DNA from: Escherichia coli
GTDB taxonomy: Bacteria; Pseudomonadota; Gammaproteobacteria; Enterobacterales; Enterobacteriaceae
NCBI RefSeq assembly: GCF_024223415.1
Contig: NZ_CP100500.1
Direction: 5' to 3' (one strand)
DNA length: 64,000 nucleotides
Part shown: in pieces, positions 4,705-10,522 of the stretch
Position numbering within the stretch: the stretch's first letter is position 1
Layout of the letters: every line of letters begins with the position of its first letter
The notes under the pieces: generated by a model
What the model was told of the DNA's origin: nothing
What the model saw: the letters and a program-made list of their open reading frames with translations, nothing else
Database searches by the model: none
Translations under genes and position numbers: made by a program

Positions 4705-5019
4705 ATGTCAGCGATACAGGGGATTGAAGGGGTTATCAGCCAGTTACAGGCTACGGCGATGAGTGCGCGTGCACAGGATTCACTGCCGCAACCGACCATT
4801 AGTTTTGCCGGGCAGCTGCACGCCGCGCTCGATCGCATTAGCGATACACAAACAGCTGCCCGCACGCAGGCAGAAAAATTCACCCTCGGTGAACCCGGCG
4901 TGGCGTTAAACGATGTGATGACCGATATGCAAAAAGCCTCAGTTTCTATGCAAATGGGGATTCAGGTGCGTAATAAGCTGGTGGCCGCGTATCAGGAAGT
5001 GATGTCCATGCAGGTGTAG
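4705..5019 (+). CDS. fliE: Flagellar hook-basal body protein FliE (104 aa)
   Basis: ORF track 4675..5019; internal ATG gives [24 protein letters not shown]. Confidence 0.9.
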
Positions 5020-6414: not shown

Positions 6415-7212
6415 ATGCTGGCAAAAGATAGGACTAACCTAAAGATTGAAGAAATACGGATGCATAAACATCATGAGATTCACAGGGTTAAGCCTCTTAT
6501 GCCAGCTTTATGTCGTATCCGTCAGGGAAAAAAAATTATCAATTGGGAGACGCATAGTCTAACTGTTGATAATAATCAGATAATATTATTTCCCTGTGGA
6601 TATGAATTTTATATTGCGAATTACCCAGAAGCAGGTCTTTATCTTGCAGAAATGCTTTATTATCCCATTGATCTAATTGAAAAGTTCCAAAATCTTTATG
6701 CGATAACCGATCAAATTCGTAACACGACAGGTTTCTGCTTACCTCAGAATCCCGAGTTAATATATTGTTGGGAGCAACTAAAAACATCTATTTCCCGAGG
6801 CTTCTCAACGCAAATTCAGGAACACTTAGCAATGGGCGTTCTACTTTCATTAGGAGCACATCATGTTAATTGTTTACTTTTATCAGATAGTAAACAATCA
6901 TTAATAAGTCGTTGTTATAACCTAATGCTATCCGAACCTGGAACAAAATGGACAGCAAACAAGGTAGCGAGATATCTCTACATTTCTGTTTCCACATTGC
7001 ATCGCCGTCTGGCAAGCGAGGGAGTAAGTTTTCAAAGTATATTGGACGACGTGAGGTTAAATAATGCGTTGTCTGCTATACAAACGACAGTAAAACCCAT
7101 CAGCGAGATTGCCAGGGAAAATGGTTACAAGTGTCCTTCTCGTTTTACTGAAAGGTTCCATAATCGTTTTAAGATAACACCAAGAGAGCTAAGAAAAGCG
7201 TCCAGAGAGTAA
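6415..7212 (+). CDS. ybcM: AraC/XylS-family transcriptional regulator (265 aa), YbcM-like
   Basis: ORF track; C-terminal AraC-type HTH region ([27 protein letters not shown]...[19 protein letters not shown]). Confidence 0.7.
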
Positions 7213-7503: not shown

Positions 7504-7543
7504 CGTTGTTATTAAATCTAGTTCGTTGTTATTAAATCTAGTT
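7504..7543. repeat. Perfect tandem direct repeat, 2 x 20 bp (cgttgttattaaatctagtt)
   Basis: Read directly in sequence within the AT-rich non-coding stretch. Confidence 0.85.
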
Positions 7544-8175
7544 TATACGTTAAGATGCAGCTACAGCAGAAATTGCCACTGTTAATTTTTTCATCGTGAG
7601 CCTTTTATTTGAACTATTATTTAAAAATGATGTCACTGCACTACAAATATTCATCCAATCAATGAGATTATTTCAAGATGTAAGTTTTAGTTTCTCATTT
7701 AAATTGTGAAGTAGATCCCTATCTTTATCTGAACTGTTTCTATTGCACACAATGCATGACTATTTTGTGAACGAATATAAATTTGGTAGTTAAATTATAT
7801 TAAAGGTTGTTATTTATGATTGACTCATAATTTATTTATTTAATTTAAATAGCCTAGAAATAACCATGGAAATTATTTGCATGATGTTTGTTTAGATTTA
7901 TTAATGTAATTGAGGTGGTTTTATTTAATACGCAATATAGCGCCGCTTGATATTAGTTCTATTTTTTTTGCGTAAGATAGATGAGACAAACTGAGACGCA
8001 TAATGGTTTGCAAGGCTCTAATACTTTGATGTTGAGGATGTGATGGGGCATGTACGGGGCATAGTACAATGATGTCCATGCTGGTGTAGATAATCTCCAG
8101 GCTTATCCGGTGCGCCGTAAAACCCCGTCCTTCAGGGCAGGGATATAAGGCGTGGTTTTCCACCTGACCAGGTGT

Positions 8176-8595
8176 TTGCTGTTGTTCAATGTATTGGCGG
8201 ATGACGGATATTGGCGCACCTCCGCAGCTACTGGCAAAATAGCCAGGACTCCACAAAACGCCTTTGTAGTAATACCTGACTGCAATATCTGGTCGATCTC
8301 GTCGCAGTCACCTACCCGATACGCCTTTGAGGCTGTTTACCAGACTGGATATCGCCAGTTTGGGAGGATAGTTAATTAACAAATGGACGTGATCTGGTTC
8401 GCCATCCATTTCAACCAGTTCAGCTTCAAAATCAGCACATACATTTGAAAAGTAAGTGCGTAGTTTTTCTGTCGCGTCATGGTCAAAAATCTGACGTCGG
8501 TATCTGGTGACAAAGACCAGGTGAACATGCATCAGGAAAACACAATGCCTTCCACGCCGGATATCGGTTTCTTTTTTCACAGACCAAAGTATCAT
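8176..8595 (-). pseudogene. tnpA: IS200/IS605 Y1 transposase TnpA, disrupted (split over two frames)
   Basis: ORF 8308..8595 carries the HVHLL HuH motif; conserved WSPGYFASSCGGAPISVIRQYIEQQ is in another frame (ORF 7921..8256) and reads through without a nearby stop. Confidence 0.7.
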
Positions 8596-8602
8596 TTGGC
8601 CT

Positions 8603-9811
8603 GTGAAACGACTACAAGCATTTAAATTCCAGTTAAGACCCGGTGGTCAACAGGAGCGTGAAATGAGGCGCTTCGCAGGCGCATGTCGTTTCGTTTTCAA
8701 TCGTGCTCTGGCACGTCAGAATGAGAATCATGAGGTCGGTAATAAATACATCCCTTACGGGAAAATGGCTTCCTGGCTGGTTGAGTGGAAAAATGCCACT
8801 GAAACGCAATGGCTTAAAGATGCCCCGTCACAGCCATTGCAACAGTCACTGAAAGACCTTGAGCGGGCTTACAAAAACTTCTTCCAGAATCGGGCTGCTT
8901 TTCCCCGATTCAAAAAGCGGGGACAGAATGATGTATTCCGCTACCCGCAGGGCGTTAAGCTCGATCAGGAAAACAGCCGTATTTTTCTGCCGAAACTGGG
9001 CTGGATGCGCTACCGGAACAGCCGTCAGGTCACGGGTGTTGTGAAAAATGTCACTGTCAGCCAGTCCTGCGGTAAGTGGTACATCAGTATTCAGACAGAA
9101 AGTGAAGTATCAACTCCGGTTCACCCTTCAGCATCAATGGTCGGGCTGGATGCTGGCGTGGCTAAACTCGCCACGCTGTCAGATGGCACAGTCTTTGAGC
9201 CTGTAAACAGTTTTCAGAAAAACCAGAAGAAGCTGGCGAGACTTCAGCGACAGTTAAGCCGCAAGGTCAAATTCAGCAACAACTGGCAGAAGCAGAAACG
9301 CAAAATACAGCGACTGCATTCCTGTATCGCAAATATCCGCAGGGACTACCTTCACAAAGTCACAACGACCGTCAGCAAAAACCACGCAATGATAGTCATT
9401 GAGGATTTGAAGGTCAGCAACATGTCAAAGTCAGCAGCGGGTACGGTCAGCCAGCCGGGGCGCAATGTCCGGGCAAAATCAGGTTTAAACCGTTCGATAC
9501 TGGATCAGGGCTGGTATGAAATGCGCCGCCAGCTTGAGTACAAGCAGCTCTGGCGTGGCGGTCAGGTGCTTGCTGTTCCGCCAGCGTACACAAGCCAGCG
9601 TTGCGCGTGCTGTGGTCATACAGAGAAAGAAAACCGCCTGTCACAAAGTAAATTCAGATGCCAGGTATGTGGATATACAGCGAACGCCGATGTAAATGGC
9701 GCTCGTAACATTTTAGCGGCGGGGCACGCCGTTCTTGCCTGTGGAGAGATGGTGCAGTCAGGCCGCCCGTTGAAGCAGGAACCCACCGAAATGATTCAGG
9801 CGACAGCCTGA
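8603..9811 (+). CDS. tnpB: TnpB (IS605 OrfB family) RuvC-like RNA-guided endonuclease (402 aa), apparently intact
   Basis: ORF track; N-terminal [13 protein letters not shown]; Ruv[19 protein letters not shown], RuvC-II IEDLKV, zinc finger CACCGH...CQVCG, Ruv[13 protein letters not shown]. Confidence 0.9.
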
Positions 9812-9850
9812 ACGTAGCAGGGATCCTCGTCCTTCAGGGCGTGGAGGATG

Positions 9851-10522
9851 TCAACAAACAGGTTGAATTAACTCCGCGCCCTGGTTTTTGACATTACCTA
9901 CCGCGCGCGATACCGGGTGCCAGGTGAACTGGTTTGCTGGCACACAGCCGTTGGTAGCAATTTCTGATGCTTCTTTACCGCCAATCTCTTGCCGCATCCA
10001 TTCCTGTGCAGCTTCTGGCGACAGAACCAGCGGGCGGCGGTCATGAATATCTACCAGACCCTGGTCTGCTGCTGCAGTGACAATTAAAAATCCTTCGGCT
10101 TCGTCACCGCGCTCAAACGGTGTGCTACCTATCGCGGCCATAAAAACAGGTTGTCCATCAGCGCGATAGATAAAATAAGGCTGTTTTTTGTCGCCTTCTT
10201 TTTTCCACTCAAACCAGCCATCGGCAAAACAGATTGCCCGACCATGTTGCCAGAGCGGTTTAAACATACGACTGGTGGCCGCAGTTTCTACGCGGGCGTT
10301 AATCAGCGGCGGTTTATCCCACCATCCGGGAGCATATCCCCAGAAAACCGGATCCAGATGAAGGTGTTCATCACGTTCACTGAGCAGAAGAACTTTGGTT
10401 CCCGGCGCGACGTTGTATCTGCCAATGGGTTCGGGATCGTAGGGAATATCGCGTTCAATATCTTCCGCGAGAAGCGCAAGGTAATCTTCACGCGTTTGGG
10501 ATTGGGCAAAGCGTCCACACAT
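9851..10522 (-). CDS. yedK: SOS-response-associated peptidase (SRAP) YedK, abasic-site processing protein
   Basis: ORF track; MCGRFAQSQTREDYLALL with the catalytic Cys2 start typical of SRAP proteins. Confidence 0.9.
   Translation of the reverse strand: MCGRFAQSQTREDYLALLAEDIERDIPYDPEPIGRYNVAPGTKVLLLSERDEHLHLDPVFWGYAPGWWDKPPLINARVETAATSRMFKPLWQHGRAICFADGWFEWKKEGDKKQPYFIYRADGQPVFMAAIGSTPFERGDEAEGFLIVTAAADQGLVDIHDRRPLVLSPEAAQEWMRQEIGGKEASEIATNGCVPANQFTWHPVSRAVGNVKNQGAELIQPVC

Follow-up and report, generated by a model that had tools for sequence, protein, structure and literature searches.

The yedK gene of this Escherichia coli genome ends in insertion-sequence DNA. In the window, the whole 64,000-nucleotide stretch analysed here, an IS609-type element lies 3′ of a TTAT motif (8103-8106) that overlaps the native tandem stop codons of yedK (TGA TAA; TTATCA on the + strand). 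The explanation that best accounts for the locus, and that we consider very probably correct, is that the element inserted once 3′ of TTAT and split the yedK TGA, giving a Cys codon at position 223 and a new TGA, with the transposase gene tnpA now dead and tnpB intact; it further comprises an apparently single origin, a predicted guide RNA, a putatively active TnpB and a probably neutral Cys223. The anatomy of the element, its junction with yedK, the matching empty sites and the distribution of both states among complete genomes are direct observations.

An IS609 junction inside the yedK stop codon

The junction is made up of the following features, in window coordinates.

8103-8106, + strand: TTAT target motif and predicted TAM, adjoining the left end of the element; its final T pairs with the A that ends the native yedK TGA.
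8107-9854, + strand (left to right end): IS609-type IS200/IS605-family element of 1748 bp, delimited by BLAST breaks and by the limits of other copies.
9851-9854, + strand: TCAA, the last four bases of the IS and its right-end cleavage motif; on the yedK strand it supplies T, which completes the Cys223 codon, plus TGA, the new stop.
9854-9856, − strand: chimeric codon 223, TGT (Cys), a direct sequence reading, in which TG is the remnant of the native stop and T is the last IS base.
9851-10522, − strand: yedK, encoding an SRAP-family abasic-site processing protein of 223 aa; the RefSeq annotation of IS-bearing genomes has the same 672-bp gene.

On the + strand the site reads GGCTTAT, then the element (CCGGTG...GGATGTCAA), then CAAACAGG; the yedK strand of the occupied junction reads CCT GTT TG/T TGA, the slash here and below marking the insertion point. 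On the + strand this point separates T from CA in the triplet TCA and so lies within the native TGA; the new stop (9851-9853) consists wholly of IS DNA. A 501-bp query across the junction found matches in 5414 of 5426 complete E. coli genomes; alignments to IS-free genomes start at window position 9855, and those to IS copies at other loci end at 9854. BLAST alignments of two empty-site loci (L011 and L017) against the window stop at 8107 and restart at 9855, sharing a single base. The IS alone distinguishes occupied from empty sites, and the target is not duplicated. An assembly artefact was rejected, as the junction recurs in 1102 genomes, and chance is not at issue because the junction is a fixed sequence feature.

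An earlier sequence-only reading of this DNA had proposed that the insertion replaced the native yedK stop and 3′ flank, and the IS-free genomes confirm this to the single base. It had also placed the yedK stop next to the IS; the close contact is real, but the stop actually lies inside the terminal TCAA, and the Cys codon likewise takes its third base (9854) from the IS. Its structural interpretation of the junction is supported and can now be stated to the base.

The TTAT at this site is present only because K-12-type yedK ends in TGA TAA, read on the + strand as TTATCA. Members of this family insert as single-stranded DNA, and because IS200/IS605 elements do not duplicate their target, the TGA was merely split. 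The A of the native stop now lies at the left end, at a distance of 1748 bp; the TG of that stop is fused to the last IS base to give TGT (Cys223), and the terminal TCAA of the IS supplies an in-frame TGA directly after it. In place of its native 3′ flank, yedK now has the right-end hairpin and an antisense tnpB.

YedK alleles with and without the element

The YedK protein of the window begins with MCGRF, with the N-terminal catalytic Cys2 of SRAP proteins in place, and matches a full-length SRAP domain (Pfam PF02586, residues 1-211, 3e-52). Its C-terminus is AELIQPVC, followed by the TGA stop at 9851-9853; the ORF and the sequence itself agree with the 223 aa and the ending given by the sequence-only reading, whose description of K-12 YedK as a 222-aa protein ending in QPV was likewise correct (K-12-type YedK, L001: 222 aa, QPV, then TGA). 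PDB chains of crystallised E. coli YedK match residues 1-222 of the window protein (6e-153), with V at chain position 222 and the window's Cys223 unaligned.

At the corresponding site, K-12-type and other IS-free genomes have AATAATCTCCAGGCTTATCAAACAGGTTGAATTAAC, which on the yedK strand is CCT GTT TGA TAA and encodes a 222-aa protein ending in QPV before two tandem stops. Three IS-free loci, L011 (APEC O18), L014 and L017, share the window's left flank, namely the 3′ edge of a small island, and read GTGTAGATAATCTCCAGGCTTAT/CAAACAGGTTG. Empty sites with this flank have GGCTTAT/CAAACAGG, a junction that can also be written gtgtagataatctccaggcttat/caaacaggttg, and their yedK product stops at QPV after 222 aa. 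When the flanks of the window are joined without the IS, the result, GGCTTATCAAACAGG, is identical to the 222-aa allele of the empty sites sharing its left flank. We note that L017 (SFGN01000137.1), deposited as a MAG of a ‘Lachnospiraceae bacterium’, is 96-98% identical to the E. coli fliE-island-yedK region and is almost certainly mis-binned E. coli DNA.

A 223-aa YedK also occurs without any IS. The native VC allele of IS-free L004 and L013 is GGTTAACAGACAGG, that is, CCT GTC TGT TAA, encoding QPVC; it has a TAA stop, GAC instead of AAC, and no TTAT, and it is present in at least 336 genomes, a count restricted to exact 60-nt matches. The allele of strain 315 (WP_001543845.1) is an example: like the window it encodes 223 aa with a C-terminal Cys, but unlike the window its Cys codon and TAA are both chromosomal, there is neither TTAT nor IS, and the flank is a DUF5503 pseudogene. 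Alleles among 14 IS-free E. coli loci read directly (including L018) were PV-TGA (n = 6), P(CCG)V-TGA (n = 2), PI-TGA (n = 2) and PVC-TAA (n = 2).

A wobble-degenerate pattern for the yedK 3′ end, run against species-representative genomes, matched one contig only (E. coli-like, filed as a Lachnospiraceae MAG). This pattern was too strict, missing for example the GCT-GCG haplotype, and the ancestral state was for that reason judged from protein homologues. Across the Enterobacteriaceae these have variable tails (PVT, PVG, PVS, PVE, PIS, PIK, PI and PL; 222-225 aa) and no clear ancestral state, the commonest condition in related genera being one extra residue after PV or PI.

That commonest condition, together with the IS-free QPVC genomes (L004, L013 and at least 336 exact matches), is what could be cited for a reading in which QPVC is the native or ancestral allele of the window and the IS landed just downstream, leaving the coding sequence unchanged. 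We find this reading scarcely credible, and for this haplotype it is already refuted: the window reads GTCAA/CAAACAGG, with its TGA stop within the conserved terminal TCAA of the IS; the VC allele differs from it in stop, in GAC for AAC and in lacking TTAT; and the rejoined window flanks restore the 222-aa empty-site allele. Thus the C-terminal Cys of the window does recur in IS-free genomes, but with a TAA stop and on a haplotype without TTAT, not in the same stop context. On this comparison, the native VC allele does not explain the window allele, because of its TAA stop, its lack of TTAT and the 222-aa allele to which the window flanks rejoin.

With Cys223 attributed to the insertion, the protein change itself is probably neutral, since IS-free genomes natively encode QPVC and YedK tails vary across the Enterobacteriaceae. 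That the IS-made residue is the same as that of the natural allele looks like coincidence, because the IS ends in A, whose complement placed after TG can only yield TGT.

Distribution, surroundings and 3′ flank of the insertion

Occupied and empty alleles were counted in complete E. coli genomes.

Occupied junction, all forms: 1102 of 5426.
Occupied, with the full right end as in the window: 666 of 5426.
Occupied, with a 100-bp deletion: about 438 of 5426.
Empty TGA-type site in the island context: 455 of 5426.
Empty TGA-type site in the K-12/fliE context: 1470 of 5426.
Native QPVC allele, exact 60-nt match: 336 of 5426.

The remaining genomes are SNP variants missed by short exact-word searches. 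GTGGAG repeats at 9741 and 9841 delimit the 100-bp deletion, which removes the 3′ end of tnpB and the right-end hairpin (for example, L005 3080-3100), while GGATGTCAA is retained and YedK is still 223 aa in those genomes; this form represents the same insertion in a further, decayed state.

Identical junctions and the 98-100% identity among occupied alleles suggest a single origin of the occupied state, in which the IS609-type element would have inserted once, in an ancestor of about one-fifth of sequenced E. coli. Several independent insertions, with the TTAT of the yedK stop as a preferred IS609 target, would be the alternative. The motif is available in roughly 1900 or more empty genomes, and IS609 occupies several TTTAT sites elsewhere; against this stand the inactivation of all tnpA copies examined, the 98.4-100% identity of occupied alleles across the junction, and the island-type left flank that the window and the 100-bp deletion variant have in common. 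On balance we judge repeated insertion quite improbable, and retain the single event as the preferred origin. ECCHD184 (L003), which is 100% identical to the window over the 501-bp query, has two IS1B copies in the island to the left of IS609 (L003 1-1887) that are absent there in the window.

The island itself spans ~3 kb between fliE and the IS, includes an AraC-family regulator (6415-7212) and is flanked on both sides by a directly repeated 20-bp sequence of the fliE 3′ end, TGATGTCCATGCAGGTGTAG (about 5000-5019) and TGATGTCCATGCTGGTGTAG (8071-8090); repeats of this kind would be expected after site-specific integration at the fliE end. The window is without ~1.2 kb of the island that is present in L017 (2543-3776), including a 360-aa ORF, and at the deletion point (7504-7543) carries a 20-nt tandem duplication, with CGTTGTTATTAAATCTAGTT occurring twice. 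In L011 and L014, a porin gene annotated as ompC lies on the island side of yedK. The fliE-yedK interval is highly variable in E. coli, with at least four arrangements (seen in L001, L002, L004, L009 and L011): a spacer of ~390 bp; an intG remnant with a DUF5503 pseudogene and yedL; a lone DUF5503 pseudogene accompanied by the native VC allele; and the AraC/porin island, in which IS609 may be present or absent. The yedK-yedD segment is up to 99.6% identical between genomes that are wholly different on the other side (L002 compared with the window), which implies a recombination breakpoint at the 3′ end of yedK.

Downstream of yedK, the insertion has changed the neighbourhood of the transcript. 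That tnpB converges on yedK, as the sequence-only reading had proposed, holds: 39 bp separate their stop codons (tnpB, 9809-9811; yedK, 9851-9853), and a terminator scan found no terminator-like site between them. The scan 3′ of yedK in K-12 found no intrinsic terminator either. Alignment with IS-free genomes, which the same reading had advised, fixed the exact junction; because the scan found no native terminator after K-12 yedK, no defined one can be called lost, and the loss of one is unsubstantiated. In the new 3′ flank a GC-rich hairpin of 8 bp sits at the tnpB stop, with CAUUUCGG after it; this flank folds at −33.4 kcal/mol over 92 nt (z −2.0), compared with −14.4 kcal/mol over 106 nt (z −0.1) for the native flank. 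In K-12, yedL lies 110 bp downstream of yedK in the same orientation; it is absent in the window.

An effect of the insertion on yedK mRNA 3′-end formation or stability, or antisense interference from tnpB and guide-RNA transcription, could on these grounds change YedK levels and with them abasic-site handling and mutagenesis. The convergent genes with their 39-bp gap and no terminator-like site, the far stronger fold of the new flank and the absence of yedL all lean that way. The allele nevertheless persists in 20% of genomes with the yedK frame intact, the scans found no canonical terminator after K-12 yedK that could have been lost, and no paper in the library searched names both yedK and TnpB. 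We regard such an effect as unlikely, and the insertion is read here as one that left yedK undisrupted.

Transposase, TnpB and predicted guide RNA of the element

Within the element the following features were recognized.

8124-8142, + strand: imperfect left-end hairpin, CCCGTCCTTCAGGGCAGGG, with a core, GTCCTTCAGGGC, common to the right-end hairpin.
8137-8595, − strand: tnpA (Y1 HUH transposase) pseudogene, annotated as such by RefSeq; the start codon ends at 8595, an in-frame TGA lies at 8308-8310 (codon 96), and the lower coordinate, 8137, marks the end of the translated stretch rather than a stop codon.
8603-9811, + strand: tnpB (insQ-type RNA-guided endonuclease), an intact 402-aa frame with its stop at 9809-9811.
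9824-9845, + strand: imperfect right-end hairpin (DNA fold −4.5 kcal/mol), conserved in other copies and lost in the 100-bp deletion variant.

Along its full 1748 bp, the window element shares 98.5% identity with the copy between ydcL and ydcO that carries insQ, which we take, from the K-12 annotation, to be the IS609 copy of K-12. K-12 IS609 (insP/insQ) matches the window element in length (1748 bp), in both ends, in the divergent arrangement of tnpA and tnpB, in the tnpA TGA and in the uninterrupted 402-aa tnpB frame; it differs in its insertion site, as the yedK site of K-12 is empty, whereas the window copy overlaps the stop and alters YedK by one residue. IS609 is the single IS200/IS605-family element listed for K-12, and no new insertions of it occurred in K-12 mutation-accumulation lines (PMC5009759).

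The ends of the element are conserved between loci. At four IS609 sites (yedK, ydcL/ydcO, hslO and ytfB) the motif (T/C)TTAT directly precedes CCGGTG or CTGGTG at the left end, and it is CTTAT at yedK compared with TTTAT at the other three. Right ends of the hslO, ydcL/ydcO and ytfB copies read GGAGGATGTCAA and then pass into unrelated DNA; all right ends examined finish with GGATGTCAA, with TCAA terminal. The left-end hairpin folds at −4.6 kcal/mol as DNA; neither it nor the right-end hairpin is more stable as DNA than shuffled sequence, and the hairpin assignments are based on conservation and position.

Pfam Y1_Tnp (PF01797) matches both halves of tnpA (4.7e-26 and 9.7e-6), and the translation at the in-frame stop reads GR*LRR. 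The TGA at codon 96 is common to the window, L003, L005 and L007 (yedK and ydcL/ydcO copies). The ytfB copy (L008) has TTA (Leu) at this codon but a 1-nt indel elsewhere, and the hslO copy (L006) has an internal deletion in tnpA. The element has the Y1_Tnp domain, TnpB, insertion 3′ of a fixed motif without duplication, subterminal hairpins and TCAA right end of the IS200/IS605 family; as for the ability to transpose, every tnpA copy examined is inactivated. The window copy is an IS200/IS605 member that has lost the ability to move, because its tnpA has an in-frame TGA.

The model element of the family is IS608 of Helicobacter pylori, which encodes a Y1 transposase and TnpB, has subterminal hairpins and a TCAA end, and inserts at a tetranucleotide target without duplication. 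The window IS609 shares with it the Y1 transposase and TnpB, the hairpins inside the ends, insertion 3′ of a tetranucleotide without duplication, and the TCAA. It differs in its target, TTAT rather than TTAC, in having tnpA and tnpB divergent rather than in the same direction, and in its inactivated transposase.

TnpB retains its full set of Pfam domains. It matches OrfB_IS605 (PF01385, 1.3e-34), the Cas12f1-like TNB domain (PF07282, 1.6e-24) and HTH_OrfB_IS605 (PF12323, 1.2e-13), as well as the ISDra2 TnpB structures 8bf8 and 8exa (5.7e-55). Its D183, E267 and D363 face Asp191, Glu278 and Asp361 of ISDra2 TnpB, positions that we take to be the RuvC catalytic residues of that enzyme. In each of the five tnpB copies compared, the 402-aa frame is uninterrupted, and pN/pS between loci is 0.16-0.36. 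Because every tnpA seen is dead while every tnpB is intact at these ratios, the sequences suggest that tnpB is maintained independently of transposition.

In related systems, for which the mechanism of IS200/IS605 transposition has been summarised, an omega-RNA is made from the 3′ end of tnpB and the right end of the element, its guide is the DNA flanking the right end, and the TAM required by TnpB is the transposon's own target motif (PMC10055086). By the same rules, two further features are predicted here.

9700-9854, + strand: predicted omega-RNA scaffold, overlapping the tnpB 3′ end and the right end, by homology to the ISDra2 and Geobacillus systems (PMC10055086); its 5′ limit is approximate.
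9855-9870, + strand: predicted 16-nt guide, CAAACAGGTTGAATTA, antisense to yedK from codon 218 through the second base of codon 223, by the right-flank guide rule (PMC10055086).

The predicted omega-RNA region has a fold z-score of −1.9. No Rfam family exceeded its threshold at the right end; at a permissive threshold, HgcC matched 9748-9867 (19.3 bits against a gathering threshold of 50, E 0.17), ending near the predicted guide end, and RAGATH-18 scored 25.4 bits (gathering 44.9, E 0.086). In tnpB-sense RNA (9838-9880, + strand), right-end GGCGUGGAG is predicted to pair with CUCCGCGCC in the yedK flank (9872-9880), enclosing the predicted guide (fold z −2.4); this pairing is probably due to chance, although in the folding model it could sequester the guide.

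By homology, TnpB with a guide from the first ~16 nt of flanking yedK would cut the empty site (TTAT followed by CAAACAGGTTGAATTA), and the occupied site, in which GTCAA precedes the guide match, would be spared, favouring retention of the IS. The ISDra2 and Geobacillus ISGst systems have homologous TnpB proteins with aligned acidic residues, and the same logic of right-flank guide, TAM and empty-site cleavage would be expected of the window element; its motif would be (T)TTAT and, unlike in those systems, with tnpA dead there would be no excision to counteract. Should TnpB require a five-base motif, the empty yedK site, with CTTAT in place of TTTAT, may be a poor target. At this locus an intact TnpB persists in hundreds of genomes despite the dead transposase (pN/pS about 0.2-0.36), and if it were still loaded with a guide matching the 3′ end of yedK, it could serve as an allele-specific homing or exclusion nuclease that cuts incoming IS-free K-12-type yedK (TTAT followed by CAAACAGG); we consider this a long shot. 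A literature search found no paper on yedK together with TnpB, on this locus or on IS609 TnpB activity.

The locus is an ordinary, long-fixed IS609 insertion, already annotated by RefSeq in >1000 genomes, and its value lies in annotation and in the reading of yedK variation. YedK proteins of 222 and 223 aa differ for two independent reasons, a natural TGT/TGA polymorphism and an IS609 that rebuilds the Cys codon and donates the stop, and neither 223-aa form should be taken for a functional variant of YedK unless data show it to be one. For the family, the locus shows an IS200/IS605 insertion inside a stop codon without gene disruption, because the strand opposite the conserved right-end TCAA contains a stop codon. 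Matched occupied, empty and motif-lacking yedK alleles offer a natural test set for the activity of E. coli IS609 TnpB. If the nuclease did act on incoming alleles, those with TTAA/CAGAC, CAGATA or CAAACC would be spared, their motif or first target bases being changed, and IS609 would shape recombination and polymorphism at the yedK stop codon.
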